Shown one piece after another: positions 1 through 48,724 of a stretch of DNA of 64,000 nt (position 1 is the first letter of the stretch; the number at the start of each line of letters is the position of its first letter). The stretch is from Candidatus Eiseniibacteriota bacterium (GTDB lineage Bacteria > Eisenbacteria > RBG-16-71-46): contig JANMQY010000030.1 in NCBI GenBank assembly GCA_031370785.1, positions 19,085 through 83,084 on the forward strand, read 5' to 3'. The position numbers and the translations under genes were made by a program. The notes beneath the pieces are model-generated. The model saw only the letters and a program-made list of their open reading frames with translations. It made no database searches and was not told where the DNA came from.

Positions 1-893
1 CGCTGCGCATCGAGCGCCGGTCCATTCACCGGGCAGCCTTCGATGTGCCAGTTGTCGGCATGCACGACCTGCGGCGTCGACCACGTGCTGCCCTCGCGCC
101 GGACGACCTGGATGTCTCGCACTTCGCCCGGGCTTCGGTCGCGATAGGCGACGAGGATCCCGCGATCGGTCATGACCGCGGCGGTCTGGCAGCAGTCACA
201 CACGCGGGCGTCCAGCTCCGCTTCGTCCCGCAGCTCACCGCGTCTCGTGACCGAGGCGGCGCGAAGCGTCATGTCTGGCATTGGGCCGGGTGCGTCTTCG
301 TCGTGTCCTTCCATCTTGCGTCCGTCGAGCCAGACCGCCAGAGCGTTGCCGGAGTCCGCCACCAGAGAGACGAATCCGTGCTCGCTGGCACTGCGGTCGC
401 GGTGTGGCGTGACCGGCGGGCTCCAGGTGCGTCCGCCGTCCTCCGACTGGCTGATGCGGACGTCGTAGGCATACGTCCCCGCGCCGCTTCGCCACAGCCA
501 GTGCGCGGCCAGCCGATTCCCGCCGAGCGCGCGAACGCTCGGGAAATCCGCCCAGTTCACGAAGAACGAATCGCCGGATGCGATCGTGGCCGGCTTCGAC
601 CACTGCCTTCCATCGTAGGTCGCGCAGCGGAGGGCCATGCGTTCGCGCACGTCGGGCTCGAGCCAGCTCATCACCACGCGCCCATCGGGCAATGCGGCGA
701 GATTCGGCTCGCGGCTTCCGGCCCGCGCCGGGGAGGTGATGGGTCTCGGCGCTGAAAGCCCGGCAGGCTCGCCCGCAGCTTCTGCCACAAAACCGGCCGC
801 GCTCCAAGGAATCAGGGCGAGCAGCGTCACGGCGCCCCAGCGCGAGAATCGATGCGGCATTGTTTGCGTTCGGTTGAACGATTGCGAGGTCAT
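1..893 (-). CDS. Secreted BNR/Asp-box (sialidase-like beta-propeller) protein, truncated by the window edge
   Basis: Not in the ORF track. Manual translation from ATG 893 (GGGAGAG RBS) gives a signal-like N-terminus, FFVNWADFP, Asp-box SEDGGRTW, VCDCCQT and GCPVNGP. The frame stays open to position 1. Confidence 0.8.
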   Translation of the reverse strand, partial: MTSQSFNRTQTMPHRFSRWGAVTLLALIPWSAAGFVAEAAGEPAGLSAPRPITSPARAGSREPNLAALPDGRVVMSWLEPDVRERMALRCATYDGRQWSKPATIASGDSFFVNWADFPSVRALGGNRLAAHWLWRSGAGTYAYDVRISQSEDGGRTWSPPVTPHRDRSASEHGFVSLVADSGNALAVWLDGRKMEGHDEDAPGPMPDMTLRAASVTRRGELRDEAELDARVCDCCQTAAVMTDRGILVAYRDRSPGEVRDIQVVRREGSTWSTPQVVHADNWHIEGCPVNGPALDAQ

Positions 894-963
894 GTGCTCT
901 CCCAGGAAGATGGCCGTCTCATGCACGGCTCGTGCGTCGGCAGATGCCTCACCTCCGCGAGGA

Positions 964-1341
964 TCACTTGACGACCAACTCGCCATGGTACATCCCCATG
1001 CGGCAGGAATAGCTCAAACGACCCGCCGCCTGTGCCGGCAGAGCCACTCGCACGGCCTTGTTCAGCGGCAAGTCCACCACCTTATCGATGGAAGGGAAGA
1101 ACGCCTGGGTCGCGCAGGTCTGATCGGTCTTGCGCGTGACCAGCAGAACGATCGGCACGCCCTGCTTGACCGCGAGGGTGGCGGGTTCGAATCCGGCTTT
1201 CGTAACCGAGATCTTCACCACCTTTGGGCGAGCCGACTTGTGAGCAATTGGATTGCCCTTGCCATGCCCGAACGCGGCGCCAGCTACCAGGAAGCACCCG
1301 AGGCCGACCGCGACTGACAGGGTTCCAATGCTTACTCTCAT
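964..1341 (-). CDS. Exported cupredoxin-domain protein (CupA/Cupredoxin_1-like)
   Basis: Signal peptide, GFEP, TC and a C-terminal YSCRMGMYHG motif; AAGGAG RBS before ATG 1341. Confidence 0.8.
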   Translation of the reverse strand: MRVSIGTLSVAVGLGCFLVAGAAFGHGKGNPIAHKSARPKVVKISVTKAGFEPATLAVKQGVPIVLLVTRKTDQTCATQAFFPSIDKVVDLPLNKAVRVALPAQAAGRLSYSCRMGMYHGELVVK

Positions 1342-1351
1342 GGCACGCTCC

Positions 1352-1762
1352 TTACTTCGCTTTCGCGGGGCTCGCCGCAACGGAATGAATGAGCAACACG
1401 GCGGTACTGGTCTTGCGGTAGACCACGCCCTTCACCTGAACGGGTTTGCCGAGGTGCGGGAGCAGCCCGGCATTCTGGCTGGCGCCATGCGCCTTGGCGA
1501 TCAACGGGTAAACGACGCCGGAGGCATCGTCGAGAAACGACAGCCCCTGCCCTCCCCTCGCGCACATCGAAGCACACGACGCGTGCGCCATGCCGCGGCT
1601 GTCATGCGTGTAGTAGCACTGCGGGTCGATGATCTCGCCGCTCATCGTAACGCTCGCGAAGCGTGGTGCGACCTTGTCCGGCGCGGCTGCTGGAAGAGCC
1701 ATCGCGACGACCGCCAGTACCAGCCCTGCCAATGTGGACAAATAGAGGGTTCCTCGCTTCAT
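1352..1762 (-). CDS. Exported Cys/His-motif hypothetical protein
   Basis: Signal peptide; GEIIDPQCY...HASCASMC motif; in operon with the efflux genes. Confidence 0.75.
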   Translation of the reverse strand: MKRGTLYLSTLAGLVLAVVAMALPAAAPDKVAPRFASVTMSGEIIDPQCYYTHDSRGMAHASCASMCARGGQGLSFLDDASGVVYPLIAKAHGASQNAGLLPHLGKPVQVKGVVYRKTSTAVLLIHSVAASPAKAK

Positions 1763-9963: not shown

Positions 9964-10007
9964 TGCATTCCTCCTCATTTGTGATGAGTCTGCAGACTCC
10001 TCCGAAC

Positions 10008-10230: not shown

Positions 10231-10281
10231 CCTTCCCCCCACTGGCTCAGCTCAAGATGCCAGTCTCTGCGGGTTGATCCG

Positions 10282-10747
10282 CTACCCGACGCTGGAGCAT
10301 TCGGGCTCGCTCAAAGCGAGCTGCTCGGGGACCTCGGCTCTTTCGACTTCGGCACGATACTCGGCCGGAGTCCTCTGCCCCAAACTCCCGTGGGGCCGGC
10401 GGTTGTTGTACTCGTCCCGCCACGCATCGAGCACCACGCGGGCGTCGATGAGCGACGAAAAGTAGTGTTGCGATAGGCACTCACGCCGGACCTGGGCGTT
10501 GAAGCTCTCGATGAACGCGTTGTCCGTCGGCTTGCCCGGCCGACTGAAGTCGAGCTTCACGTGGTTCGCGTATGCCCACTGGTCGAAGAGCCGCGACGTG
10601 AACTCGGTTCCGTTGTCGACGTGGATCGCCGTCGGCAGGCCACGCTCAACGCCAGCGCGCGTCAGCACGCGCGCGCCGTCGGCACCGCGGAACGATCCGC
10701 CGACCTCGAGCGCCACGCACTCGCGCGTGAACGTGTCGAGCACGGTC
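10282..10747 (-). pseudogene. IS3 transposase, integrase-core C-terminal part
   Basis: LDTFTREC, DNGTEF, PGKPTDNAFIESFN and YNNRRPHGSLG motifs. Confidence 0.9.
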
Positions 10748-32400: not shown

Positions 32401-33963
32401 GCAGATCGTCGGCTTCCTGCGCCCGTCCTCGGCCGGGCCTTCGCTGCTGAACGACGCCTTCACACCCGAGGCGGCGCCGTTCTGCGTCGCGCCCACGCTG
32501 ACGCAGTTCTTCGCGACCGCCGGTGAGCCGACCTGCGCCGCGGTGAAGGTGTTGCCGTTGGAGAAGAAGATCGTGAAGTCCTTGTGGTCCCACATGAACT
32601 GATCGACCGTCATCGCGTTGACGTCGTAATTGTTCGAGGCCGCGCCCCAGGAGTTGGACGACACGCGCGCCGCGCCGCCGGGATTGCCGAGGTAGGGCGG
32701 TTCGAACAGCAGATTCAGATCGCCCGGGGCGGTGATCGAGTTGGTGTCGTTGCCGGCGTCGGTGAAGAAGATCTTGGCCTTCATCGCCTGCCCGTCGCGC
32801 AGATCGGCAGCGAACGGAGAGTCGTCGCCGCAGATCGTGCCCGCGGTGTGCGTGCCGTGGAACGACGCGCCCGACACGTCGCCGAACCGGATTCCCGGAA
32901 GCGCGGCGCGGTAGGCGATGATCTTGCGGTGCGTCGGGAAGTCGCCGAAGGTCGTGATCGGCACCGCATTGTCGCGGAACTGGTTGTGCGAGGTCCGGAT
33001 TCCGCTGTCCGAAGTGTGCACCACCTGCCCTTCTCCGTGCAGACCCATGTCCCAGACACGGCGGCTGTTGGTGACGTTGGTCTGTACCACCCACTGCGCG
33101 GTTGAATTGTTGAGCACCGGCTGGTGATAGGGCTCGACCCACGCCACGTCGCTGCGCGACGCGATCGCCGGCGCCAGCGCGGCATCGATCGTGACCCGCA
33201 CGATCTTGTTCCGACCCGAGTCGGTGGCTTCGACGATCGATCCGCCCAACGCTTCGATGGCGCCGCGTTCGGCGGCGAGATCGGCGTCCGGGAACAGCAG
33301 GACCACCAGCGTGGTCGCGCCAATCAGCGAGTTCGACTCCGAGCTGAGTTTGTAGGCCGGCTGATAGGCGCCGACCCAGCGCACGAACGAGAGGCCCTCG
33401 AACCGGGCGCGAGCCGCATCGCTCATGCGCACGAGGAACGTATAGCGCGGAAGGTAGGAGACGACAGTGGCGCCCGCCGCCTCGAGCTGCTCGCGCTGAC
33501 CCGTCTGGATCGGCCCCGCGAACTGAACGAGATAGCTGCTCCTCTCGCCGACGGATGACTCCGTGGAGGTGAGACTCGAAACCGCCGCCGGCTCGCCGTC
33601 GCGAAGTGGATCGAAGCGGATCCCGTTGCCGAGCTGAATCTCGCCAGCGTCCGGGTACGCCGCGACCTGCTGCGTTCCGCGGCCGGCGCTGACGATCATG
33701 TCTCTCGCGGAGGTGCGGCCGGTCGAGACCACCGCGGGCGCAGCGCCCGATGGCCGAGCGGTGGCGTCGCGTGCCGCGGATGCCGGGCTTGCGGACGCCT
33801 GTGTGTCGCGACCGCCGTCCGGTTGCGGAGCCGGACGTGCGCCATAGGCGAGCGTGGCTGCGAGTGCCAGGCACGCGATGGTGGCGGCCGGTGGGATGAG
33901 CCGGCGTGCCCGAAGGGGCACAGAATGGAGTTGGGTCCTATGGGTGGGAACGCGCGGCTTCAT
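29422..33963 (-). CDS. Secreted multidomain S8 subtilase with a C-terminal FlgD-Ig/T9SS-like domain
   Basis: Catalytic DSG, HGTH and GTSMASP; GRRKP and NDLDL as in KP-43-like subtilases; QNAPNP...SGVYFYRL tail; AAGGAGG RBS. Confidence 0.92.
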   Translation of the reverse strand: MKPRVPTHRTQLHSVPLRARRLIPPAATIACLALAATLAYGARPAPQPDGGRDTQASASPASAARDATARPSGAAPAVVSTGRTSARDMIVSAGRGTQQVAAYPDAGEIQLGNGIRFDPLRDGEPAAVSSLTSTESSVGERSSYLVQFAGPIQTGQREQLEAAGATVVSYLPRYTFLVRMSDAARARFEGLSFVRWVGAYQPAYKLSSESNSLIGATTLVVLLFPDADLAAERGAIEALGGSIVEATDSGRNKIVRVTIDAALAPAIASRSDVAWVEPYHQPVLNNSTAQWVVQTNVTNSRRVWDMGLHGEGQVVHTSDSGIRTSHNQFRDNAVPITTFGDFPTHRKIIAYRAALPGIRFGDVSGASFHGTHTAGTICGDDSPFAADLRDGQAMKAKIFFTDAGNDTNSITAPGDLNLLFEPPYLGNPGGAARVSSNSWGAASNNYDVNAMTVDQFMWDHKDFTIFFSNGNTFTAAQVGSPAVAKNCVSVGATQNGAASGVKASFSSEGPAEDGRRKPTICAPGDGVTPLSGISSANGANDTGYKGLAGTSMASPTAAGAATLIRQYLTDGWYPTGAPNPANGFIPSAALIKAMSISSTDDDMPGHALPDNAVGWGRMKLDNALFFPGDAIRTALVDDNAGLTTGQYAEYQLYVTNTSVPLKITLCWTDREGNPASLTQLVNDLDLTVTDPNGVSYLGNVLTNSQSVPGGTADILNVEEGVRLNVPFAGRWTIRVGGTNVPFGPQPFAIAATGGVGNVSGLLSLDRHVYGRDDQIQVRVDDADAVGPVTVSVSSSTESTPEALTLSGGGGVFTGSIATTWLQPSGDGKVSVSHGDAVTVSYSDAAPAGVVSATASVDFDGPVITGVGATERGETQLVGWATNVQASSRVYYGTTQALGQATQAYPELVLSHAVLLSGLQPETEYFYDVESKDQGGNLTRDDNGGSHYRFVSGRRGDILVVIGDGSFPATNTYVDALLERGWNPAVLEGGTITNPLVGNRNAGLRSFTAVWWQVGQEQYPPVPDAARDSLDRLMAGGARLAMNGHDIAWAFTDPASGQYTPARKAWLQNTLHARFLEDPAAWVVNQGVATDPISDPYVAGVPYVGHRQGASGDEIELVPGSGTGAYVWRNTDATPDNIALRWESATPNGNASDAVWGGTPSKLLYNAFEWAQLVNVADRVDILDRSLVWLIGNDHPDVTVASPNGGEVIADSTIPVSWTEAPHGSATIAARSIRYSADGGRSWQLVTANAGASPYAWDVSGLTNGGTYRARVDVADNGSPSLNGRDASDGDFAIQRAGGDIAGPVVVAGSVRTNPNPMNNETVSTLFARVSDLATGGSRVNGAEWSQGVQPAPAGRGMWMDGTFEDGDVEVSGVIRVRILPAGAITLWVRGRDEAGNWGPASPRTFDVNGNPNVSVDGDVPVRFALEQNAPNPVAGAGTLIRYALPRSGRVELTVFGVRGERIRTVTSEFQPAGRRAILWDRRDDSGRQVPSGVYFYRLQLGNQHATRKMVVMN

Positions 33964-34212
33964 GACGACCTCCTTGGGCCTGGAAGCAGAAGCTGGTCGG
34001 CATGGCGTCCGACGCCACGGGCGAAAGCTCGCGACGCCGAGAACCCAGCCATGTGCTCCGAAGCATCGAGGAGTCGGCTTGAGAACGGCTTGAGTGGCGG
34101 AGGTCGAGTGAGGGGGCCGGGCGCAACACACCGGACCTAGCCTGCTCCAGCACCGCGAGTTGGCGCGGGCGCGAGCTTCAGCCAGTCGAGGTCGGCGACA
34201 TCACGCCAACCT

Positions 34213-34793: not shown

Positions 34794-36773
34794 TCAGCGC
34801 ATGAACGCCACGCGCTGCGTGGTCACACCTTCCGACGTCCCGAGCGAGATGAAGTACACGCCTGCCGGCACGCCGATCATGCGATCGGTCTTGCCATCCC
34901 AATTGCGCGTGTACTCGCCGGGGAGCATCATCCCCTCGTGGATCGTGCGGATCCGGCGTCCGGTCGCGTCCGCGACCGTGAGCCGCACGAACTCGGGGCG
35001 GCCGATGCGGAACACCACCGACGTGCCATTCGAGGCCGGATTCGGAGAAGGCGCGCTCAGCATCGCGCGTCCCGTGAACAGCGCGAGGCGGCTCGCCGAG
35101 GCCAGCCCCATGTAGGACGTGTCTCCGGCGCGGTCCGTCACCCGCAGGCGGTAGAAGTAGTTCGTGCCCGGCTGAGCCCCGGTGTCGAGCGCGAGAGTGG
35201 CCTGGCCCTCGGAGCTCAATTCGGTCTGGATCGGGCCCCACGGTCCTGGCTCCGCGATCGCGCGCTCCACGGTGATCCCGATCACGTCGGACGGATCGCC
35301 GAACTGCCAGCGCAGCAGGACGCCATCGCTCCGGCCTTCGGCGACGAACTGCGCGAGCGTCGTCGCCGTCGCGAAGTCGAACCACCCGATGTCCTCGAAG
35401 TGGTAGCGCGTGAGATCCACGCTGTCGTGGAGGTCGTTGTTGATGGCCGGTTCCATCAGCGCGTTCGGCAACATCGAGACGTCCCAGTGGGACACCGACG
35501 AGCCGCTCGCGAATGGATTCGGGGCGTACATCAGCGGATGACCGGCGTTGTCGGCACCCGCCTTGTTCACCGGATCGAGATTGAGCGTCACGTTCACGCC
35601 CGAGCCGAGATTCGCCTTGATGGCATTGCCATCGGCCTGCGAGATGCCGACGGACGGGATCGTGATGGTGGGATCCGAGCCGCCCATGCCCGGCAGGCCG
35701 GCCGCGACGTTGTTCGCGATGATCACGCCGATCGCGCCCGCGTTCTGCGCGGCCTTCACCTTGATCACGAACGTGCACGTGCCGCGGTCGATGAGCGCGA
35801 TGTTGCCGCTGATCGCCGCTGCGTTGGCGGCCGGCTCGCACCCGTCGTTGATGTTCGGGGCGACGCCGTCGTCATAGAGCACGACGTTGCCGGTGAGACC
35901 GCTCGCCGTGATCGCCGGCCCGAAGGACGCCGCCTGCACGGCATAACTGCCGGCGATGACGCCGGGTGAATTGATGAGCATGCGCGGACGCTGCGTCAGG
36001 TAGGAGCCCGCGGCCGTAACCGCCGCCGCACCGTCCCACACCAGTCCATTCACGCTGATCGCCGACGCCACCCGCTGCGCCGGGGTCTCCTGGTCCCAGT
36101 GAAGGCCCGTGGCGTTGTCCAGAAGGTACTTGTCGAAGATGCTCGGGAACGAGCTGTTGTAGTTGCCGCTCGACCCGCTGGTGGTGGTGCTGAAGCCGAG
36201 GCCGTGCCCGATTTCGTGGAGCACGACCGGGAGGAGCTCGATGTTGGCGCCCTCGAGGCCGTCGTAGCCGTAGTACCAGTAGATCGGAGGAGAGCCGAAG
36301 CATCCGGTATCGATGCTCAAGTTGAACGTGGCGTTGATGTCGGGATTGGTGGGGCTTAGATCCGCGAAAAAGAGCCGGTTCGCGAGCGACTGGTGGTACC
36401 AGTGGCCTGCAACCAGCGCGCCCGCGAAGTCGCGATGGATCGTGGTCGGCCCGGCGCTGCCCAGCACCGCGCTGGTGGGAGTACAGGTCTGTGCCGCGAA
36501 CTGCGCCCGCACCAGGATCGGGACCGTGCTGGGCAATATTCCGCCCCAGATGTTCGCCGCGTACTGGAACACGTTCAGTCGTTGTTGCCCGAGCGTGGTG
36601 CCCGGGTTGCCGCCGACCGGCGCGACCGGGGTGGGATCGTTGAAGCCCACGCCCGGGAGGTTGTTATTGACGATGGTAATCGTCGCGGCGCCAGCCGATC
36701 CGAATACGAGCGCGAGCGACGATGCGAATAGCAGCGGCAGGACGCCGAGCGAGATGCCTTTCGTGGTCGCCAT
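34794..36773 (-). CDS. Secreted zinc metalloprotease with a PA domain and a FlgD-Ig/T9SS-like tail
   Basis: HEIGHGLGF, PA motif IALIDRGTCTFVIKVKAAQNAGA, SSVSHWD, PNP...AGVYF. Confidence 0.88.
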   Translation of the reverse strand: MATTKGISLGVLPLLFASSLALVFGSAGAATITIVNNNLPGVGFNDPTPVAPVGGNPGTTLGQQRLNVFQYAANIWGGILPSTVPILVRAQFAAQTCTPTSAVLGSAGPTTIHRDFAGALVAGHWYHQSLANRLFFADLSPTNPDINATFNLSIDTGCFGSPPIYWYYGYDGLEGANIELLPVVLHEIGHGLGFSTTTSGSSGNYNSSFPSIFDKYLLDNATGLHWDQETPAQRVASAISVNGLVWDGAAAVTAAGSYLTQRPRMLINSPGVIAGSYAVQAASFGPAITASGLTGNVVLYDDGVAPNINDGCEPAANAAAISGNIALIDRGTCTFVIKVKAAQNAGAIGVIIANNVAAGLPGMGGSDPTITIPSVGISQADGNAIKANLGSGVNVTLNLDPVNKAGADNAGHPLMYAPNPFASGSSVSHWDVSMLPNALMEPAINNDLHDSVDLTRYHFEDIGWFDFATATTLAQFVAEGRSDGVLLRWQFGDPSDVIGITVERAIAEPGPWGPIQTELSSEGQATLALDTGAQPGTNYFYRLRVTDRAGDTSYMGLASASRLALFTGRAMLSAPSPNPASNGTSVVFRIGRPEFVRLTVADATGRRIRTIHEGMMLPGEYTRNWDGKTDRMIGVPAGVYFISLGTSEGVTTQRVAFMR

Positions 36774-38590: not shown

Positions 38591-41500
38591 CTACTCCCCG
38601 GCCATCTGCACCAGCGGCGGCGGCACCACGCCCGCCTGCTGCGCGGCCTTCGCGACCTTGAGCGGGACCAGCTTCGCGAACGCTTCGGAGAAGTGCCAGC
38701 GCTTCCACACACCTTCGAGGCGTAACGTGAGGTGCTCGCCCTCGATGCGCAGCGGAATGCCGCGGCGCCTGGCTTCGCGCGAGAGCAGCGGCGCGACGTC
38801 ACGGGTCCACTCCTCGGGCGAGGTCGCGGTCAGTACGTTGCCGCGATATTGCGCCGGATCGAGCTTCACCTCGGGGTCGAACACGAACACGCGCCCGGCG
38901 GCCGCGCCCGACATGAAGAACTTGGCGGAGTAGGGCCGGGGCCTGAGCGAGAGCTCGCCCTTCGCATCGGGCTTCCGCAGGCCCATCACGATGTGCAGCG
39001 AGTTGTCGCCGCCCGACATCAGGTACTCGAATGCGTACTCGTTGGGCGAGCCGAAGTGAACGGTCTTGAGCCCGGGCGCCGGGGTCTTGCCGTCGGCGAG
39101 GAACACCTTGTTCTGTCCGGCCACCGCGAAGCGCGAGCCCGAGTCCCACAGGCTGATCGTGCCGCCGTGCGCCGAGTACATGCTGGTGTTGAGTACGTCC
39201 TGCAGCACGAACAGGTAACCGGAGTCCGCCTTCATGCCCTGGTGGCTCTGCCCCTGTCCGTACAGCCAGATCTCGGCGCCCTCGAGCAGCGCGCCGATGA
39301 AGTCGCCGAACTCGCGCCCGTAGAGCTCGATCGTGACGCCCTTCGCCGGGCTGCTGTCCGGATTCGCCAGGTTCGTTCCCACGTAGCGCGGGCCACCGAT
39401 GAAGTCGTAGCCGATCAGGTTCTTCCACCCGAGGCGCACCGCTTCGCTCACGATCCGCGAAGCGGAGTTGAGCCCGAACGACTCGCTCGCGAACCCGGCG
39501 AAGTCGATGACGAGCACATCGCGCACCGGATCGTTGGGCGACGCCAGATCGTCGCGCGTGTCGAGCGTGAGCCGGCCGTAGCGCCCGACGCCGCGAGTCG
39601 GATGCGACAGCACATCGAACAGCAACGGCAACTGGTCGAGGATGCGGTAGAGCCCGCCCTCAGCCTCTCCCATCCCGCCACCCTCTGGCGCCGCTTTGCG
39701 TCCGCCGTCCGTCAGGTACTCGACGCTCGAGAGCGCCTTGCCGCCCAGATCGCAGAAGGCGAGTCGCTTGCGCAGCTCGGTGAGAATGCGGATCGCCGCC
39801 GGGCGGCGCGGATCGCTGTCGTGCGCAAAGGCGGGCAGCGCGACTTCGGCCAGCCAGCGCAGGCTCTCGAAGCTGAGCGCCTTTGCACCTCCGAGCACGG
39901 AATCGATCAGCTCGTTGGCCGGTGGTGGCAGCAGGTCGTCGGGCCCGAACATGCGCTTCGCGCTCATCGCGCCTGCGCCTTCCAGCGTTCGCGCGAGTTG
40001 TGAGAGGCGCTCCTCGACCATCGCGCGCCACGCGCCATCGGCGCGCTCGGCTACCTCTTCGAGCGGAGCGAAGAGATCCACCTTGGCGCCCGCGCGCTCG
40101 ACCAGCACCGGTTCGCCGAAGCGGTTGCGCAGATCGATCGTGCCGCTGCCGGGCTCAGTGAATGCTTCGAACACTCCGCCATGTTCGCGGCGTTGCGGGT
40201 TTCCTCCCGGGCGCATGCTGAAGCGCAGGTCGGCGGCCGCATCGCCGAGGATCCCTTGCTGGTGCAGCACGCGCAGCATGCTGTCCGCGATCTTGGCCTC
40301 GCTCCCGTTCGCCACGGCGCGCACGCCGCCGGCCGCGGAGTCGTGAGTCACGATGATCTCGTGCGGCCTCAGGAACTTGATGTCCATGTTCTCGCGGAAG
40401 CCGACCACGCGCGTCTCCGCGCCGCCGCCGGTGGGCACGCGCCGCGACTCGACGATCGTGAACTTGTACGGGCCGGTCGGAGTGAGCTGCACGTAGTTGG
40501 TCATGAGCAGGCGCAGCTTCGCCCTTCGATCCTCGTCCATGCCGGCGAGATCGAAGCCGGTGATCGGCGAGATGATCTGGGAAGCTTCCTCGGTGGTCAG
40601 CCCGAGCACGCGCCGCGTGAAGTCCACGAGGTACGCCGCATACTCGGTGTCGGTCAGCGCCTTTCGCGCGTAGACCGAATCGCCGTGGAATAGCTCGGCG
40701 CGTTCGCCCATGCTCGGATCGACGTGCACGTAGCCGAACTCGTTCAGGAACGGCGAGGTCGAATCGACCGCGACCTGCTCGCCGTTGTGCATGAGCAGCA
40801 CGTTGTACGCCTTGAACGGATGCGCGCCCGCGGGATTGCCGCGGCCTTCGGGGTCGATCGCCGGTGAATTGGTCGGATAGCGATGGTGCATGCCCCACAC
40901 GTGCGCGTAGAGCGCGGGCGTGGCGAACGTGTTTCCCTTCACCGTGACCTCGACGCCACCCTTCTCGGCCGCGCCCGGGTAGCCGGCCCAGAATCGATCG
41001 AAGTCGAAGTACTCGGGGATGGTGTGCGTCCAGCCCGAGATCTTGATCGCACCGAGATCCTCGCCCATCGAGACGACGAAGCCGCGGCGCTTGTCCGCAT
41101 ACATCCCTTCGGGCGCATCGACCGGCCTGTGCGTGCGGTAGTAGCGCGAGTCCAGGATGTGGGCGAGCGCGGTGAAGTACTCCTCGCGCACATCGGCGAT
41201 GAAGTCGCGCAGGCGGCGCCCGGTATCTCCACCGTCGGACCGATCGCCAGCGCGGGATCCGGCCTCCGCGTCGTCGAGCGCCGCCATCAGCGTCTCATCG
41301 CTCAGGTCGCCGTACTTGGTGCGGCGCTGCAGCCAGTGCGTGCTCGCGACCAGCGCCCGCCCATAGCGGCGCTGCACCTCGCGCTTGAGCTCCACGAAGA
41401 AGGTGTAGAAGTCGCCCGGGTTCTCACGCAGGTCCGCCAGTCTCCAGCCGTCCTCGCCGGCGTAGCGTTCGCGCACCGGCAGGCGGAACTCGAAGAGCCG

Positions 41501-44500
41501 GTCCTGCGCTTCGACCAGCGACATCTCGCTGCCCGCAGCGTCGAAGAACCGGCAGCCGTCGAGATGCATGAGCATCTCCCGCATCGAATCCTCGCGATCC
41601 GGTCCGATGGTGTTGAAGATCAGGCAGGTCTTCTCGCGCAGCGCGGCGGGCGCAAAGCCCGCGAAGTCGATTCCGCCGCCGCGGTTGTTTCCGCCGTTGA
41701 ACGAGCGGCACGCCGACTCCCAGATCGCGTGCACCGTGACCGGCTCGGTGACCGCGAGCGAGCCGACGCGGCACGAGTCGTGGTCGGCTTGGGCGCGCAC
41801 TGGCGCCTTGGCCGGCTCGTGCCGCGGCATCACCAGCAGATCGGTGCGCCCGCGCAGCTCGCGGATGTCGCGGATCATCAGCTCGGGCCGGGCTTCGAGC
41901 GCGTTGGCATCGAGCGCTCCGCTCTCGCGGTTCAGCGCGTCGATGAGCACCGCGAGCTTGACCATGTTGAGCGCGGTCCAGTTGCGGAATCGCGAGCGCA
42001 TCAGCGCGCGGTCGTTCTGCAGCGTCAGTTCGGGCTTGGTGGTGATGCCGCCGCGCGGGCAGTCGAGGTGGCAGTTGCCGCACTGGTTGCAGCCGAACGC
42101 CACCGCCTTGCCGATGCTCGCCTCCATCAGCGCGTCGGCGCCGGCGATCAGCACCTTGAGCATGTCCATCTCGCCGCGGATGCCGCCCGAGGCGAACAGC
42201 CGCGTGCCGCCGCCCGCGCCGAACGGCGCGCCGTTCAGGTCTCGGATGCTCCTGAGCTCGCCGCTCCGGTCGAGATCCACCTTCTCGTGCACCAGCGCGT
42301 GATGGGTGTGCAGGATGCTGCGGAAGATGTCGGGCCAGCCAACGTGCGAGGAATCCGCGTGGTAGTTGCCCGAGCCGCCGAGTCCCGCGTCGATGAGCAG
42401 GTAGTCGACCACGAAGTTCGACCACATGCCCGCCGCCACGTAGCGCGTGTAGTTGGAACCGGTGATCTTGATGCCGCAGTGGTTGTGATACAGCAGCCAC
42501 AGCCACACTTCGGAGGGCATGTCCTCGATCGAATAGATGTCGTGCTTGGGATCCGGCGAGAGCGCATCGGTGCCGACCGGAATGCTGCGCGCGCGGCTCA
42601 CTGTCGGAGTCACCTTCGCGCCCGAGAGCCGCCCGCCCTTGCCGGGCTTCGCACCCTGATTGATCTTGATCTCGACATCGAGCACGCGGCGCAGGTCGGC
42701 GGCGTGGATGCCGAAGTGTCCGCTCGCCGCCTGCATGCTCTCCCACTTCATGTCCTCGTCGCTCGCGAGCCGGATCGGACCGCCTTCGCCCGACGAGGTC
42801 ATCGCGAGGCCCGCGTTGCCCTCGACGCGCGCGGTGAGGAAGTCTTCGGATGCGGCCCCGAGCGAGATGCTCGAGTGGTTGACCGGTCCATGCCACACCG
42901 GCTCGCGGAATCCGAACCCGGATAGCACGAGGCCGCCCCTTGGATCGCGGCGCACCGTGATCGTGCCGTTCACCGAAGCGCGGAGCAGGGAGAGGCCGTG
43001 CCCGCCGTGCCCGGCCGCAGTGAGCTCGACGGTGCTATCCCCGCCCTCGGGATCGCGCGCGACCAGCCACAATGGCTTCTCTCCGGCAAGCACCGCTTCG
43101 AGCGCGTTCCCTTTTTCGAGCTTCATTTCGAATCCGCCTCGCGCATCCGCGGTGAACGAGATCAGCGGGGTTCCGAGCTCTCCCGCCGCGATCGTGACTT
43201 CGGCGCGCGGCGCGACCGCACCCGGGCGATTGAAGCCACGCGGCACCGCGAGCGAGATGTAGTCGAGCAGCGAAGGATCGTGTTTCAGGCGGTCGAGCGA
43301 CCAGGCCAGCGATTCGCGAGAGAGTCTGACCCCGATCGCATCGAGCGAGAACGCGCCCATGTCGCTCTCCATGAAGAAGTCATCCACCGTCGGTATCTCG
43401 CCCGCCGCCATGCGGTAGATCACCTCGAGGAAGTCGGCGTTCAGGTTCCGGTTGGAATTCTCGAGATGATAGTTCGCATTGCGATGCGCGAGGATCCTGG
43501 CGGCGTGCACCAGCGGCAGATCCGCGCGGATCTCGCGCAGCAGGGCCGAGACGCGGAAGCGCTCGCGAATCCCGCGCGGAACCGGCTCCGCGGCGAGGCG
43601 CCGCGCGTTGAGCGCCACGTTGGTGGCCGCGAACTCGGGCGTGGCCAGCGCGTCGACCTCGCGCACCCAGTCCTCGGTGAGCGTGATCGCCATGGTGTTG
43701 CCCGAAGTCTTCTGGATGTCATCGATGCCCATGCACGACAGGAAGTCGAGAATGCTGTGCTGCCAGCAGGTGAGCGTATGCAGCGCCTCGTCGCGCAGCT
43801 CTTCGGGATCGAAGCCGCGCAGCTTGGCCACGATCGGCGCGGGATCGGCGCCGTCGTACACGTCCACCAGCTCGGGCAAGAGCGCCAGGCCGGCGAGGTG
43901 CGTCATGGCGCCGCCGTTCGCGCCGAGCAGCACCGATTCGTAGACCGTCGCGGCCGAGGACTGCGTGTCGTGATCCCCGCCCGCGGAGACCAGCTGCACA
44001 CGCGCGCGCAGGAACCGGGTCTTGAGGAAGTTGTCGATCAAGGGCGTGAGCCGCCAGCTCTTCTCGGCGGCGGTGTGGTAGTGGATCATCGCGACGCCGT
44101 CGGTGCGGGCCGCGTTCTCCAGCGCTTCCCAGAATCCTTCGCCGAGCCGCAGGTAGACCGAAACCAGCACTTCCGGATTCACTGCGCGGAGCGCGGCGAC
44201 GTGCGCGGCCAGATCCGCGCTCCACACCGCCTCGACCAGTCGCGCCGAGGCCAGCGCCTCGGTGAGCGTGACCGCATGGGCGGTCGGCGCGGCCAGATCC
44301 GCGACGTGCCTTGGCTCGAGGCGCAGCATCAGGTTCTCGACGTGCGGGCGCAGCGCGGCGTTGTGCTCGAGGTAGCGGTCGGCCTCGACCACCACCAGCG
44401 AGCGGGTGTGCAGGTCGTTCGCGTCGTCAGCCGCCGCAATCGCCTCGAGGTAGGCGCGCTCGATCGTCTCGCCGTCGCCGTAGGGAATCGGACCCACGAT

Positions 44501-45064
44501 CATTGGCATGTCGAGCCGCACCGAACGCAGCGGCAGCCGGGTCTGGCCCTCGGCGGTGCGGAACAGCACCGCCGGATGCTTGCGCACGATGTCCCACGCG
44601 GTCGAGAACTCCTCGCGCAGTCCGTCGTTGGCCGGATGCGTGATCGCGGCGTGCGAGAAGTAGGCGCGCCAGTAGCCGTAGTGCCACGCCGCGCCCAGGG
44701 TGAGCGGCTCGCTGCGGAAGCGCTCCTTGATCACCTTCTCGAGATCGAACGAGGTGATGCCGAGCTGCGGGATCTCGCGCGACACGCGCGAATACCTGGC
44801 GAGAAACGCGCGCCCGCGCTGCCCGCGCGACATCTTCCAGAACGCGTCTTCGGAAATGTCGTGGCGTTCGAGCAGATACGACAGCAGCGCGCGCTTGGGC
44901 TTGCGGTCTTCGACCTGCGGGCTCTCGGGATCGACGATCAGTGTGAGCAGATCCTCCCACACCGCGAGCTCCTCGCGGAATGCCGCGCCTTTGCGCCTTC
45001 CGTTCCCCGCGCCGTCGCCGTTGCCGCGAAGCTCCTCCGCGATCCGCTCGATGCCGATGCTCAC
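38591..45064 (-). CDS. Domain-permuted glutamate synthase large-subunit-like protein (2157 aa)
   Basis: GEGG, QAASGHFG, EIKINQGAKPG, HDIYSIED and a Cys cluster; then HDSC, HHRYPT, AHPF, HNGE and TDTE; then a GltB3-like region. GTGA overlap with the upstream gene. Confidence 0.88.
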   Translation of the reverse strand: MSIGIERIAEELRGNGDGAGNGRRKGAAFREELAVWEDLLTLIVDPESPQVEDRKPKRALLSYLLERHDISEDAFWKMSRGQRGRAFLARYSRVSREIPQLGITSFDLEKVIKERFRSEPLTLGAAWHYGYWRAYFSHAAITHPANDGLREEFSTAWDIVRKHPAVLFRTAEGQTRLPLRSVRLDMPMIVGPIPYGDGETIERAYLEAIAAADDANDLHTRSLVVVEADRYLEHNAALRPHVENLMLRLEPRHVADLAAPTAHAVTLTEALASARLVEAVWSADLAAHVAALRAVNPEVLVSVYLRLGEGFWEALENAARTDGVAMIHYHTAAEKSWRLTPLIDNFLKTRFLRARVQLVSAGGDHDTQSSAATVYESVLLGANGGAMTHLAGLALLPELVDVYDGADPAPIVAKLRGFDPEELRDEALHTLTCWQHSILDFLSCMGIDDIQKTSGNTMAITLTEDWVREVDALATPEFAATNVALNARRLAAEPVPRGIRERFRVSALLREIRADLPLVHAARILAHRNANYHLENSNRNLNADFLEVIYRMAAGEIPTVDDFFMESDMGAFSLDAIGVRLSRESLAWSLDRLKHDPSLLDYISLAVPRGFNRPGAVAPRAEVTIAAGELGTPLISFTADARGGFEMKLEKGNALEAVLAGEKPLWLVARDPEGGDSTVELTAAGHGGHGLSLLRASVNGTITVRRDPRGGLVLSGFGFREPVWHGPVNHSSISLGAASEDFLTARVEGNAGLAMTSSGEGGPIRLASDEDMKWESMQAASGHFGIHAADLRRVLDVEIKINQGAKPGKGGRLSGAKVTPTVSRARSIPVGTDALSPDPKHDIYSIEDMPSEVWLWLLYHNHCGIKITGSNYTRYVAAGMWSNFVVDYLLIDAGLGGSGNYHADSSHVGWPDIFRSILHTHHALVHEKVDLDRSGELRSIRDLNGAPFGAGGGTRLFASGGIRGEMDMLKVLIAGADALMEASIGKAVAFGCNQCGNCHLDCPRGGITTKPELTLQNDRALMRSRFRNWTALNMVKLAVLIDALNRESGALDANALEARPELMIRDIRELRGRTDLLVMPRHEPAKAPVRAQADHDSCRVGSLAVTEPVTVHAIWESACRSFNGGNNRGGGIDFAGFAPAALREKTCLIFNTIGPDREDSMREMLMHLDGCRFFDAAGSEMSLVEAQDRLFEFRLPVRERYAGEDGWRLADLRENPGDFYTFFVELKREVQRRYGRALVASTHWLQRRTKYGDLSDETLMAALDDAEAGSRAGDRSDGGDTGRRLRDFIADVREEYFTALAHILDSRYYRTHRPVDAPEGMYADKRRGFVVSMGEDLGAIKISGWTHTIPEYFDFDRFWAGYPGAAEKGGVEVTVKGNTFATPALYAHVWGMHHRYPTNSPAIDPEGRGNPAGAHPFKAYNVLLMHNGEQVAVDSTSPFLNEFGYVHVDPSMGERAELFHGDSVYARKALTDTEYAAYLVDFTRRVLGLTTEEASQIISPITGFDLAGMDEDRRAKLRLLMTNYVQLTPTGPYKFTIVESRRVPTGGGAETRVVGFRENMDIKFLRPHEIIVTHDSAAGGVRAVANGSEAKIADSMLRVLHQQGILGDAAADLRFSMRPGGNPQRREHGGVFEAFTEPGSGTIDLRNRFGEPVLVERAGAKVDLFAPLEEVAERADGAWRAMVEERLSQLARTLEGAGAMSAKRMFGPDDLLPPPANELIDSVLGGAKALSFESLRWLAEVALPAFAHDSDPRRPAAIRILTELRKRLAFCDLGGKALSSVEYLTDGGRKAAPEGGGMGEAEGGLYRILDQLPLLFDVLSHPTRGVGRYGRLTLDTRDDLASPNDPVRDVLVIDFAGFASESFGLNSASRIVSEAVRLGWKNLIGYDFIGGPRYVGTNLANPDSSPAKGVTIELYGREFGDFIGALLEGAEIWLYGQGQSHQGMKADSGYLFVLQDVLNTSMYSAHGGTISLWDSGSRFAVAGQNKVFLADGKTPAPGLKTVHFGSPNEYAFEYLMSGGDNSLHIVMGLRKPDAKGELSLRPRPYSAKFFMSGAAAGRVFVFDPEVKLDPAQYRGNVLTATSPEEWTRDVAPLLSREARRRGIPLRIEGEHLTLRLEGVWKRWHFSEAFAKLVPLKVAKAAQQAGVVPPPLVQMAGE

Positions 45065-47721
45065 CGGGGCACCTGCTTCCGGAAATCTTCGAGCGCCATG
45101 AACCACTCGCGGGTCGGCGCCTCCATCACGCGCAGCGTCTGCCCGCCGTTCAGGTGATTGGCCGGGCACACTTCGACGCAGGTGCCGCAGCCGATGCACA
45201 GCTCCTGCTCGGTGGTGATCCAGCGCGGGTCCAAGCCCTCGTACTCCTTGTTGGCCGCGGTCGGACACACCGCGACGCACGCCGCACAGTGAATGCACGT
45301 CGCCGCGGGGCCGGCGTCCGCCTCGGCGCGCAACAGCACGTAGCGCGTGGTGCCGGCGAGCGCGGCCGGCGTGCGCTTCTGGTAGCCGCCCGGGCGGACG
45401 TTCAGGAAGTCGCGCGTGTAGCGGGTCGAGCCGCGCAGCGTGGTGAGGATCGCTTCGTGACGCTCGCGGCGCCTCGGGCGTGCGGCATCCGATGCCTGCT
45501 GCATGGCCTGGTAGAGCGGCAGGTGCGGGATGCCGGCCTGGCAAACCTCTTCGCAGTTGCCGCAGCGCATGCAAAGGTCGAGCAGCGTGCTGCCGACTTC
45601 GCTCACGCCTTCGCCGGCGTGCATCGCCTCGCCCAGATGCGTGAGCATCTGCGGGAGGCGGATCTTCGATTCGTGGAAGATCGGACATACGCTGTTGCAC
45701 TCGCCGCAATTGACGCAGTTGAGCGCGCGCGCCGATGCTGCCTGCGCGCCGTCGATCGCGGAGGCGGGCATGTCTGCATCAGCATCGACCGGCGGCACCG
45801 CGAACCGGGCGCCGACCAGCGCCGGCTCGCCCCGACCCCGCGCCGGACCGGGAAGTGCGCGCAGTACTGCGCGCGCCGCGCGCACCAGCCATGCGACCGC
45901 CGGCGCTTCGCTCGCGCCGCGCATTACTGATACTCCGGGAACGAAGCTGCCCGCGACCAGCGCACCGAGCACACCGTGCAGGCGCAGGCCGAGACGCACG
46001 CCGCGGTTGAGCAGCGCGCGCGGATCGAGACCGCGCTTGATGCCGGCGAAGCGCTTCGCCTCCGCCTTTCCCACCTGCCGCGAGAGCCACGCCGCCTGCC
46101 AGCGCCCGAGCACGTAAGGCCGGCCCTGATGGCGCGCCATCGCGAGGTCGACCAGCGCCGGGGCGAGCAGCAGGTCGACCGCGAATGCGCCGCTGCGATG
46201 GTCGGTGAGATAGCCGCCGATCACGAGCGCGGTCCCCTCGGCGAGGAAGTACACCTCGGCGTCCAGCTCGTTGCCAGTGTTGTGCGCGAGCCGCGTGGCG
46301 CGCGGAAGAAATCCCGCGACTTCCGAAGCAGGCATCAGGATCTCGGCGGCCAGAAGCCCGGGCCCAAGCCGCTTGGTCTGCTGCGGCTTGAAGCGCTCGG
46401 CCGCAAAGCGCGCGCTGTCCGCATCGAGCACGCGCGGACGCCACGGACAGCTCCTCAGCAGCACCGCGAATGCGCGCGCCTCTTCGATGCTCAGGAAATC
46501 GACGAACAGGTAGGCCGCGCCCACGCTGTCGGGCGCGATCGTGGCGCCGAGCTTGCCCGGCGCGACGATGCGGGTCCACGGCAGGTGCGTGTCCGTGGAG
46601 AGCGCGCTCGGCGCGGTGCGCCACGTGCGCGAATCCTCGTCCTGCCACACCCGGCGCGTGTGGTGCATGTGCGAGGCGGAGAGCAGCTTCACGTTCGCCG
46701 GGCGCGCCGCCTGGTTGGCGCCGATCCAGCCCACCGCTTCGAGCGCATCGCTCTGCGAATCGAAGGCCAGCAGGAACGCGCCGATCTCGGGACGCTTTTC
46801 GACCGCGACCGTCAACTGCAGCACCAGCCCGAGCACACCCTCGCTGCCCGCGAGATCCGCGAGCGTCATCGGCTGGAGTGCGCGCTCGGCAAACCAGGCG
46901 GCGCTCTCGCCGGCCGCGACCGTCCGGCGCTTCAAGCCCTCGTCCGGCACGTCGAGCCGCCCGTCATCATGGAATCTCACGTGCTCGCCGTCCGGCAGCA
47001 CGACATCGGCGGCGCGCACGTTGTCCAGCGCGCGGCCGCGGCCGAACGCGTTCATGCCGATCCCACCGGTCACGAACCAGCCGGCGAGCGTGCCGCCGAG
47101 ATTCGACGGATAGACGCGGAGCGCGAGCCCCCGCTCGGCGAGCTTCGCATGAACGGTGCGCAGCCGCGCACCGGCGCCGACCACCACCACGCCCGAGCCG
47201 GGCTCGATGTCGATCGTGTCGAGGCGCGACAGGTCGAGCGTCAACCCCGCGTCGTTCGGCACCGCGCCACCCATCGCGGTCGAAGCCGCGCCGCGTAGCG
47301 TGACCGGCACGTTCGACTCGCGCGCCCAGCGCAATGCGCGGGTGCACTCGGCGAGGTTGACCGGCTGGAAGATCACGTCCGGAACCGCGCTCGTCAGCGT
47401 GCGGGTGAACATCCTGCCCAGATAGACGTTCTGATCGCGATCCGCCTCGGTGCGCAGGAACGCGTCCGTGACGATCCGCTCGCTCAGCGAGGCCGAGACG
47501 CCATCCTTCTCGGCATCGGTGCTGAGCGCGGTGTGCAGGGCCTGCGCCAGCAGGAGCGTGCGCTCAGGAGCGCGGCGCTGATCGAGAGCGACGCCCTCGT
47601 CGAAGAAGAAATTGAGGTCGGAGATGCGTTCGCGCTTCGCGGCCGCGCGCGGGTCGGAGGTTGGCCCCGGTGCTGCGTCGGGCGGCCGGCCGAGGGTCTT
47701 CTCGAGAGTGGAGTCGGTCAT
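45061..47721 (-). CDS. FAD-linked (VAO/PCMH) oxidoreductase with four CxxCxxCxxxC Fe-S motifs
   Basis: PDVIFQP, RGAAS, GSEGVLG, LDPRALLN; CVNCGECNSVC, CMRCGNCEEVC, CIHCAACVAVC and CIGCGTCVEVC. Confidence 0.9.
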   Translation of the reverse strand: MTDSTLEKTLGRPPDAAPGPTSDPRAAAKRERISDLNFFFDEGVALDQRRAPERTLLLAQALHTALSTDAEKDGVSASLSERIVTDAFLRTEADRDQNVYLGRMFTRTLTSAVPDVIFQPVNLAECTRALRWARESNVPVTLRGAASTAMGGAVPNDAGLTLDLSRLDTIDIEPGSGVVVVGAGARLRTVHAKLAERGLALRVYPSNLGGTLAGWFVTGGIGMNAFGRGRALDNVRAADVVLPDGEHVRFHDDGRLDVPDEGLKRRTVAAGESAAWFAERALQPMTLADLAGSEGVLGLVLQLTVAVEKRPEIGAFLLAFDSQSDALEAVGWIGANQAARPANVKLLSASHMHHTRRVWQDEDSRTWRTAPSALSTDTHLPWTRIVAPGKLGATIAPDSVGAAYLFVDFLSIEEARAFAVLLRSCPWRPRVLDADSARFAAERFKPQQTKRLGPGLLAAEILMPASEVAGFLPRATRLAHNTGNELDAEVYFLAEGTALVIGGYLTDHRSGAFAVDLLLAPALVDLAMARHQGRPYVLGRWQAAWLSRQVGKAEAKRFAGIKRGLDPRALLNRGVRLGLRLHGVLGALVAGSFVPGVSVMRGASEAPAVAWLVRAARAVLRALPGPARGRGEPALVGARFAVPPVDADADMPASAIDGAQAASARALNCVNCGECNSVCPIFHESKIRLPQMLTHLGEAMHAGEGVSEVGSTLLDLCMRCGNCEEVCQAGIPHLPLYQAMQQASDAARPRRRERHEAILTTLRGSTRYTRDFLNVRPGGYQKRTPAALAGTTRYVLLRAEADAGPAATCIHCAACVAVCPTAANKEYEGLDPRWITTEQELCIGCGTCVEVCPANHLNGGQTLRVMEAPTREWFMALEDFRKQVPR

Positions 47722-47890
47722 CCCGGTGGGTTCGGGGAAGGCGCGAGCCGCCGAAGGGCCTCACGGGGCCGTTCCGTGCGACGAACACGCAGGAAATGCG
47801 CCTGATCGGGCGCATGTGGCTGCGTGAACCGGGGGACTATAACAGAGGGGGTGCGGCGGGTCACACCCGGCGGCGTGCGCCGGATGCGCG

Positions 47891-48724
47891 CTACTTCCCC
47901 ATCAGAATCGCGGTCACGTTGATGAACGACAGCACGAAGCCCGCCGCGGTGACGAGCAGCAGGCCCAGCGCTAGCAGTTGCACGCCCAGGCTCTCGCGCT
48001 TGTCGTCGTTGAAGCGCATCGCTTCGGCGATCACCCAGCCGCCGGCGAAGCCGCCGGCGTGCGCCCAGATGTTCACGTTGCTCATCGTGAAGCCGAGCAC
48101 GAAATTGATGATGACCCAGGGCCATAGCTGGCGCGTAAGCATGGTGTGGCCGACCCGCCGCCCGTACACGATGAGCGCGGCGAACAGGCCAAAGATGCTG
48201 CCCGAGGCGCCGACCGTCGCCGAGCCGCTCACCAGGTTCGAAAGCACGAAGCCCGCCGCACCGCTCAGGCTGAAGATCACGAACGCTCGCGCCGGGCCAT
48301 AGACCTGATTCACGCCGGGGGCAAGATTTCGCACGATCATCAGGTTGAAGAAGATGTGGAGCAGGCTGCCGTGCAGGTAGATCGCGGTGAAGACGGTCCA
48401 CCACCAGCCCTGCCGCCACGCGATGCCGCCGGTCATGCCGAGCTGATACAGCGCCTGGTTGCCGGGCGCGAGGATGTTGAAGAGTCCTCCGCCGCCCGAG
48501 AGGATCGCGTCGGGCTGGAGCAGGAGCGAAGCCACGTAGAGCGTGACGCACGCAACCATGATCAGCCGGATCACGTCGAACTGGCGTCCGAAGAAGCGCT
48601 GAACCACGGGCGCCCATCCGTAGAGTCCCGGGCGCCACGCGCCACAGAACGGACAGCGCTCTTCGCTGACGCTGATGAGTTTCCCGCACGAGGGGCACAG
48701 CATGGAACCCTGGTTCTTGCGCAT
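47891..48724 (-). CDS. Rhomboid intramembrane protease with an N-terminal zinc ribbon
   Basis: CPSC/CPFC, HxxxxHxxxN, GASG and AHAGG. Confidence 0.92.
   Translation of the reverse strand: MRKNQGSMLCPSCGKLISVSEERCPFCGAWRPGLYGWAPVVQRFFGRQFDVIRLIMVACVTLYVASLLLQPDAILSGGGGLFNILAPGNQALYQLGMTGGIAWRQGWWWTVFTAIYLHGSLLHIFFNLMIVRNLAPGVNQVYGPARAFVIFSLSGAAGFVLSNLVSGSATVGASGSIFGLFAALIVYGRRVGHTMLTRQLWPWVIINFVLGFTMSNVNIWAHAGGFAGGWVIAEAMRFNDDKRESLGVQLLALGLLLVTAAGFVLSFINVTAILMGK

Follow-up and report, generated by a model that had tools for sequence, protein, structure and literature searches.

Among amidotransferases, glutamate synthase (GltS) is a textbook example of an enzyme that needs its catalytic cysteine as the first residue. 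How, then, can a relative of this enzyme have its nucleophilic cysteine preceded by some 1,100 residues of functional domains? The question is raised by a gene in a 64,000-nucleotide stretch of DNA from an uncultured sediment bacterium of the Candidatus Eiseniibacteriota (contig JANMQY010000030.1, positions 19,085 to 83,084; hereafter the window). The gene occupies positions 38591-45064 of the window on the minus strand and encodes a protein of 2157 amino acids (236 kDa). Class-II amidotransferases need a free α-amino group on the nucleophilic cysteine, and short propeptides are found in the large subunit of GltS and in PurF of B. subtilis. In contrast, the "propeptide" of the window protein comprises 1097 residues of functional domains, and we know of no other class-II amidotransferase with a functional-domain propeptide of this size. 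Our analysis suggests, with moderate confidence, a model in which the protein is the large subunit of an uncharacterized, glutamate-synthase-like iron-sulfur flavoenzyme that descends from a fusion of two genes, cleaves itself, is fed by glutamine, and is reduced by the product of the adjacent gene.

Gene integrity and domain order

The open reading frame (ORF) is intact, with a GTG start codon at 45064 and a stop codon at 38591-38593. The start codon overlaps the TGA stop codon of an upstream ORF on the same strand (45061-47721) in the sequence GTGA, an arrangement that fits translational coupling of the two genes. The frame continues open in the 5' direction to a TTG at 45709; because this extra stretch lies inside the upstream gene, which has clear Pfam domains, 45064 is the sensible start. 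No stops or frameshifts of the kind contemplated in an earlier note on this DNA, which was made from the sequence alone, were found to split the ORF. Homologues of the same length come from many independent assemblies. A scan with one genome per species yielded 63 loci. In 42 of them, one ORF includes the end of the FMN domain (RGRTDL) as well as the DSCRV motif that surrounds the catalytic cysteine; the rest are fragmentary or fall outside these strict patterns, owing to sequence variants or a break in the frame. Contigs from four public sequencing runs (three DNA, one RNA-library) were compared over positions 40800-42800 and contain zero insertions or deletions in this interval, and pieces from a second sample are identical to the window across the codon of the cysteine. 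A 19-kb contig from a relative, assembled from metatranscriptome library run X10, spans the same interval without gaps at about 94.5% identity (110 substitutions). These lengths, frames, and contigs refute the view that an assembly or frameshift artefact joined two genes; nothing was found in its favor, and its probability is negligible. As a separate matter, the contig from run X10 cannot distinguish RNA from carried-over DNA and is no proof of transcription.

In the predicted structure, an N-terminal region with an α/β barrel is followed by the FMN synthase barrel, a linker, an N-terminal nucleophile (Ntn) glutaminase, a helical insert, and a GXGXG β-helix. The earlier note had described this order as a permutation of canonical GltB in which the glutaminase starts mid-protein, at Cys1098, and the domain map agrees. 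Canonical GltS begins with the glutaminase (residues 1-422), which is followed by central (423-780), synthase (781-1202), and β-helix (1203-1472) domains (PMC8097209). GltB/GltD and ferredoxin-GltS (1EA0, 6S6S, 7MFM, 1OFD/1OFE/1LLW) have in common with the window protein a GAKPG-containing FMN barrel, an Ntn glutaminase, a packed C-terminal β-helix, and an Fe-S site in the synthase domain. The window protein differs from them in that its glutaminase follows the synthase domain and in that it has an extra N-terminal region and the helical insert.

The FMN synthase domain is the sole domain visible to profile hidden Markov models (HMMs), with Pfam PF01645 matching residues 727-943 (E 9.6e-47). 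When four pieces of the protein were searched against Pfam at E<=10, no family was found for residues 1-700 or for either of the pieces that make up residues 1094-2157; the piece with the FMN domain gave, in addition, weak matches to ferredoxins and FMN barrels. The NCBIfam model PRK11750 covers only residues 731-850. A profile of 26 full-length homologues aligned with PDB sequences over the FMN domain only, plus a non-significant stretch of the β-helix. Because profile HMMs detect no more than the synthase domain, the two halves of the protein were folded separately, each with a 32-sequence alignment.

The N-terminal helical region (residues 1-160; 44585-45064, on the minus strand like all features of the gene) contains an invariant stretch at residues about 119-157 (44594-44710; ...YFSHAAITHPANDGLREEFSTAW). 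This stretch has a predicted local distance difference test score (pLDDT) below 50 and no counterpart in GltS, and it may form an interface with the other half of the protein or with the partner subunit. An α/β barrel-like domain, a helical region, and a small β domain were assigned by fold match to residues about 161-730 (42875-44584). The model of residues 31-1097 (pLDDT 69.4; predicted template-modeling score (pTM) 0.60) aligns with the central and synthase domains of GltS (chain residues 450-1189) at Z 19-20 and a root-mean-square deviation (RMSD) of 7.4 Å, and single-domain FMN barrels score almost equally against it. The first roughly 690 residues have no significant similarity to the canonical central domain in hhalign (E 0.59), and the central-domain family PF04898 has no Pfam match in the window protein. 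Thus, the "degenerate barrel" proposed in the earlier note has a comparatively weak fold match to the central plus synthase region of GltS but no sequence support; that it is the equivalent of the central domain is plausible, not established.

The FMN synthase (β/α)8 barrel spans residues about 731-1077 (41834-42874), ends in LRGRTDLL, and is identified both by PF01645 and by its alignment with GltS chains in the PDB (E 6e-24). In this profile comparison the stretch QGAKPG.GG....KV......R.R + SP.P.HDIYSIED aligns with GltS; QGAKPGKGG corresponds to residues 803-811 of the window protein, with GAKPG at residues 804-808 (about 42641-42655). The domain also contains an invariant four-cysteine cluster motif, Cys992-x2-Cys995-x2-Cys998-x3-Cys1002-Pro (42059-42091), in the alignment of homologues. 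Canonical α-GltS carries a [3Fe-4S] center according to PMC8097209, whereas the motif in the window protein has four cysteines.

Cys1098 (codon 41771-41773) lies within DHDSCRVG, residues 1094-1101. According to the model, Cys1098 opens a class-II (Ntn) glutamine amidotransferase fold that reaches residue about 1650 (40115-41773) and contains an insertion of helices. It is followed by the helical insert (residues about 1665-1819; 39608-40072), which has only weak MIF4G/ENTH-like matches (Z 6-7), and by a right-handed β-helix (residues about 1820-2145; 38630-39607) that appears equivalent to the C-terminal (GXGXG) domain of GltS. The model of residues 1086-2157 has a pLDDT of 79.3 and a pTM of 0.85, with pLDDT below 50 in the 12 residues that precede Cys1098. 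Foldseek ranked GltS first (1ofd_A, E 4e-7), followed by GlmS, PurF, GFAT, and EgtC. Alignment to 1ofe_A with VIA-align gave Z 20.2 and an RMSD of 3.6 Å over 570 residues (model 13..1056 / chain 1..1506); the class-II amidotransferases GltS, PurF, GlmS, GFAT, and EgtC fell at Z 13-20, among them PurF (6ott_A, Z 16.2), GlmS (1xff_A, Z 15.8), and EgtC (Z 13.8). Since a single rigid-body fit covers the glutaminase and the β-helix, the two are predicted to pack as they do in GltS. The 36 top structural matches are all class-II amidotransferases. In each of them the alignment starts on the model side at residue 13, corresponding to Cys1098, and on the chain side at residue 1 or 2, except in plant PurF (6lbp), where it starts at residue 87. 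Cys1098 superposes on Cys1 of GltS, PurF, and GlmS (Z 16-20).

Origin of the fusion and state of the glutaminase site

The two halves of the protein are encoded by adjacent genes in a split relative (G039) from the same class and another family. Three consecutive genes on one strand of that genome encode a 604-residue FAD_binding_4/Fer4 protein, a 982-residue protein with Fer4 and Glu_synthase domains (P0123), and an 870-residue protein with GATase_6 and GXGXG matches (P0122). The FMN domain of the N-terminal half aligns in hhalign with P0123 (E 1e-24) to its very end; LRGRTDLL lies at residue 975 of 982 in P0123 and at residues 1070-1077 in the window protein. The C-terminal family aligns with P0122 over 788 columns (E 4.5e-34) and places Cys1098 on Cys34, so that the glutaminase of P0122 begins with a propeptide of about 33 amino acids. 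Because the halves align to the end of P0123 and to P0122, the stretch from LRGRTDLL to Cys1098 corresponds to the old intergenic junction plus propeptide. The proposal of the earlier note that the protein is a fusion is therefore borne out, with the junction falling exactly at the linker.

The model shows the linker (residues 1078-1097; 41774-41833) as disordered. Counted from the position that follows RGRTDLLx up to the cysteine, it ranges across loci from 18 to 91 residues (median 33), and its sequence is variable save for (E/D)(H/R/L)DS immediately before the cysteine. Judged from these alignments, the linker appears to be a propeptide trapped by the gene fusion. Gene 1, which contributed the barrel region and the FMN synthase domain as well as the Fe-S site, was joined to gene 2, which contributed the propeptide, the class-II Ntn glutaminase, the helical insert, and the GXGXG β-helix; the catalytic cysteine is now residue 1098 because the old propeptide became an internal linker. 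The start of a canonical GltB (L072), MTSPFDREHAA/CGVGF, resembles the corresponding sequence of the window protein, ...AEHDS/CRVGS (the slash precedes the cysteine).

The fusion of the window protein is one of several ways in which this nucleophile has come to lie inside a chain. A profile search of 1.84 billion representative proteins returned only 264 at E<=0.001; 150 of them were scanned for the context of the cysteine, which 26 contain. Fifteen of the 26 are of the giant type, with DS or DA before CRVGS, and eight are of the split type, in which ...EGG precedes a cysteine at residue 31-46; over all split-type representatives looked at, the position is 9-46. In two mega-fusions the cysteine is residue 1896 or 1991, and one protein, P0196, has it at residue 79. 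By Pfam, P0169, P0216, and P0225 combine FAD_binding_4, Fer4, Glu_synthase, amidotransferase, and GXGXG in a single chain, and P0258 has the same set minus the GXGXG match; P0196 has the order glutaminase - β-helix - FAD - FMN. These fusions with the GlcD-like FAD/Fe-S module are 2,500-3,150 residues long. Because the mega-fusions and P0196 show other architectures, burial of the nucleophile has occurred more than once, in separate lineages. The earlier note had called the window gene an independent fusion. It is a fusion but no isolated case: members of the family are widespread, and separate fusions in other lineages also put domains before the cysteine. Apparent fusions with the FAD gene in L010, L022, L033, and L046, where stop-to-stop frames reach 2621-3198 residues, were rejected as out-of-frame read-through of the overlapping gene.

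Is the glutaminase site still functional? In an alignment of the C-terminal half of 32 sequences with 58-80% identity to the window protein, five motifs are invariant in 32/32: H1095-D-S-C1098-R-V-G-S, N-N-R1128-G-G-G, H-H-R1395-Y-P-T-N-S, H1426-N1427-G1428-E-Q, and T-D1472-T-E. By comparison with PurF, GlmS, and GltS, we take the conserved arginine to bind glutamine, Asn-Gly to form the oxyanion hole, and the aspartate to hold the amino group of the substrate. The catalytic motifs of the window protein align in hhalign to HQRYPT and HNGD of the split relative, which in turn correspond to HQR210YSTN and HN231G232EI in the GltS of A. brasilense (1EA0), a stretch that is not significant alone. 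Loss of glutaminase activity, which the earlier note had offered as an option, is unlikely because Cys1098, Arg1128-Gly, His-Arg1395-Tyr-Pro-Thr, Asn1427-Gly1428, and Asp1472 are all invariant; an inactive remnant would not be expected to retain every motif. The same note had drawn attention to CR in place of the usual CG. The substitution is present but is no sign of inactivity: CR is a trait of this family, and the split and mega-fused relatives keep CGV.

Partner gene, proposed mechanism, and alternatives

The upstream gene (45061-47721, minus strand), a partner that the earlier note had overlooked, encodes a GlcD-like FAD/Fe-S protein of 886 amino acids (95 kDa). Pfam finds FAD_binding_4, a weak match to FAD-oxidase_C, and two dicluster ferredoxin regions; four CxxCxxCxxxC motifs are read as four [4Fe-4S] clusters, and no CCG domains were found in the protein. 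Among named proteins, GlcD, D-lactate dehydrogenases, and LctD come closest to it, with scores far below every equivalog cut-off (62 bits against a cut-off of 568 for the glcD model). It has FAD_binding_4, FAD-oxidase_C, and ferredoxin-type clusters in common with GlcD/GlcF, 2-hydroxy-acid dehydrogenases of the YdiJ type, and LctD (7QH2).

The partner lies upstream on the same strand in 41/41 loci that contain the N-terminus of the large gene, with a gap of <=250 nt in 37; in the remaining 22 of the 63 loci, the longest frame is without that N-terminus. The four wider gaps are occupied by glnN, which encodes a type III glutamine synthetase, in L008, L013, and L047 and by a gene for a ClpP-like protease in L038. 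In all, 4/63 loci carry glnN between the partner gene and the large gene, in the same orientation (L008:7570-9900, encoding 776 amino acids; L013:2310-4556; L015:6467-8767; L047:1180-3423), and it is absent from the 64-kb window. In P0169, P0216, P0225, and P0258 the partner is fused to the synthase in one chain. This upstream linkage in 41/41 loci, together with the one-chain fusions, makes a physical complex of the large protein and its GlcD-like partner very likely. One ferredoxin domain is C-terminal in the window's FAD protein but N-terminal in the FMN protein of a split relative (L071:11699-13513, 8674-11622); by this comparison, it seems to have crossed the gene border within the same operon.

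The analyses thus establish the architecture, its origin by fusion, the conserved catalytic motifs, and the linkage to the partner gene. For the cleavage, the reaction, and the electron donor, these findings suggest a model of maturation and catalysis. Because a free α-amino group is required on the cysteine, the precursor is predicted to be cut between Ser1097 and Cys1098. The precursor would fold, after which Cys1098 itself would cut the Ser1097-Cys1098 bond, as in other Ntn enzymes, to yield chains of 119.9 and 116.4 kDa (about 1097 + 1060 residues) that would remain associated. The freed amino group of Cys1098 would then serve glutamine hydrolysis. The ammonia released would travel to the FMN site and be added to a 2-oxo acid, most likely 2-oxoglutarate, and the imine would be reduced. 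Electrons would come from the co-translated GlcD-like FAD protein rather than from GltD or ferredoxin, through its four clusters and the four-cysteine cluster of the synthase domain (five in total). Judging by the fold, it is tempting to guess that the substrate of the electron donor is a D-2-hydroxy acid. A nucleophile preceded by a flexible linker of variable length, with pLDDT below 50, fits the anatomy of Ntn hydrolases that process themselves into two chains. The presence of glnN inside the operon and the alignment of the FMN site with GltS favor glutamine and 2-oxoglutarate as substrates.

Several observations weigh against this self-cleaving, glutamine-fed enzyme. Neither NCBIfam nor Pfam has a glutaminase or GXGXG model that matches the window protein. 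None of GATase_2/4/6/7 matches residues 1094-1700 at E<=10, whereas the split and mega-fused relatives do match GATase_6. The C-terminal half is not significantly similar to the glutaminase of canonical GltB in hhalign (E 0.36), and the model of the N-terminal half is poor exactly in the most conserved stretches. Cleavage between Ser1097 and Cys1098, which we consider the best reading, is deduced from other class-II amidotransferases; among its bases is the C1A result described for GltA of B. subtilis (10.1101/2021.04.12.439528). The lysine motif of the FMN site is GAKPGKGGR in the window protein and GAKPGEGGQ in the aligned GltS chain, so the substrate could differ. Glutamine synthetase (PF00120) has no match in the window genome, which marker genes place at 100% completeness and 0.9% contamination, and the glutamine synthetase-glutamate synthase (GS-GOGAT) cycle cannot run there for that reason. 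Finally, the large gene is present in only 17/41 relatives of the window genome and is therefore dispensable and patchy among them.

Part of this evidence would suit a chain that is never cut. Its glutaminase-like domain would then be a remnant with a structural or regulatory role, and free ammonia or a different amine would supply the synthase site. The failure of the amidotransferase HMMs, the arginine in place of glycine after the cysteine, and a genome with two glutamate dehydrogenases and no glutamine synthetase all agree with such a remnant. However, invariance of the Cys, Arg, Asn-Gly, and Asp motifs in 32/32 sequences at 58-80% overall identity would be unexpected for a dead site, and split relatives, whose propeptides are short and ordinary, have the same motifs; we regard a remnant as distinctly improbable. 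A reading that we also hold to be unlikely, if not so readily set aside, accepts the cleavage and disputes the reaction: the enzyme would use another 2-oxo acid or another amide donor, and the GlcD-like subunit would oxidize a 2-hydroxy acid in a coupled reaction. The altered lysine motif, a partner unlike any known electron donor of GltS, the patchy distribution of the gene, and the low PRK11750 score (81 bits vs a cut-off of 1047) point in this direction. Against it, the catalytic lysine and the arginine-rich 2-oxo-acid stretch align with GltS, and the location of glnN inside the operon at 4 loci speaks for glutamine and glutamate. The C-terminal half might instead be made separately, from a translation start in the linker at Met1079, and then shed a short propeptide. 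This methionine is conserved in at least 90% of sequences and sits 19 residues before the cysteine, a distance akin to the propeptide lengths of the split forms. Yet no Shine-Dalgarno-like run of purines precedes its ATG, the frame is open through the linker in 42/63 loci, which a mere operon remnant would not need, and removal of a propeptide would still be required; the chance that this explanation is correct is very small.

If the favored reading with self-cleavage is true, the window protein would, as far as our searches and knowledge reach, be the first class-II amidotransferase to mature like penicillin acylase or γ-glutamyltranspeptidase. In two-chain Ntn hydrolases such as these and the proteasome β subunit, as in class-II amidotransferases, the nucleophile is described as likewise exposed by cutting of the preceding bond. 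The protein would then offer a clean system in which to study how such cleavage is triggered. The known forms of GltS include an NADPH-dependent α-β enzyme, ferredoxin-GltS, a fused NADH form, and, in Archaea, separate ORFs for the domains (PMC8097209). The archaeal arrangement is like that of the split relative, which has the FMN domain and the glutaminase plus β-helix in separate genes. It differs from the window protein in that the latter is fused; the split relative already joins glutaminase and β-helix, and a GlcD-like FAD gene heads its operon. Compared with GltB/GltD, the coupled neighbor in the window is a FAD_binding_4/Fer4 protein rather than GltD, in a genome that was not searched for gltD. 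A putative F420-dependent FGltS of methanogens, proposed from genome context, similarly unites a GltS core with an unusual electron-input subunit (PMC3448663); its input module is FrhB/FpoF-like rather than a FAD domain of the VAO/GlcD type, and no permuted glutaminase takes part. Our full-text literature searches turned up no relative of GltS that has its glutaminase inside the chain or a GlcD-like protein as partner. The partner would represent a fourth kind of electron input for glutamate synthases beside NADPH, NADH, and ferredoxin, and it would possibly tie nitrogen assimilation to the oxidation of 2-hydroxy acids in abundant, uncultured bacteria of soil and sediment. Both the buried nucleophile and the new input module would surprise specialists.

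Distribution, nitrogen metabolism, and neighboring genes

Of 8000 candidates scored in a word-indexed protein search, 756 matched at E<=0.001. The best 120 of the 756 homologues are 1827-2341 residues long and 56-100% identical to the window protein over nearly the full length. Where the matches listed carry a name, it is "glutamate synthase-related protein" or "glutamate synthase domain-containing protein 2/3/ferredoxin". The 63 loci come from metagenome-assembled genomes labelled Candidatus Eisenbacteria, Thermoleophilia, Actinomycetota, Planctomycetota, Krumholzibacteriia, and others.

The large gene is the only strong PF01645 match of the window genome, in which canonical GATase_2 and GXGXG have no match. 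Among the 41 relatives, which are not independent of each other, glutamine synthetase is present in 2/17 genomes with the large gene and in 23/24 without it; one of these 23 non-carriers (G026) is an unpublished genome, without which the count is 22/23. Carriers from other phyla have glutamine synthetase in 3/3 cases, and one of them (G041) also has canonical GltB. The complementary pattern is real but lineage-bound, and absence of glutamine synthetase as a general trait of carriers was rejected. The idea that the large gene replaces canonical GOGAT was likewise rejected: PF00310 is found in 0/26 high-quality relatives with or without the gene, and G041 has both enzymes. It is tempting to speculate from the complementary counts (2/17 vs 23/24) that in the Eisenbacteria carriers the reaction runs in reverse, as an ATP-independent route to glutamine that stands in for glutamine synthetase. 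Glutamate would be oxidized at the FMN, a high-potential acceptor would be reached through the FAD/Fe-S partner, and ammonia in a sealed tunnel would drive formation of the amide at Cys1098. We look upon this as a long shot.

BLAST of the flanking ORFs identified an ABC ATPase, a rhomboid protein, DNA glycosylases, DUF218, and an Rce1-like protein as recurrent neighbors besides the FAD/Fe-S gene; judged by their families, these have no evident link to the enzyme. The rhomboid is represented in the window by a 326-residue ORF at 47718-48698 (minus strand) without a Pfam match; it has a homologue in L001 (6296-7117) that belongs to the rhomboid family, and homologues recur upstream of the operon in 11 loci. 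Two other minus-strand genes of the window encode products with FlgD_ig-like ends, namely a 1569-residue S8 subtilase with fn3 and purple-acid-phosphatase-N domains (29422-34131) and a 659-residue PA-domain protein (34794-36773). Both are probably secreted proteases.

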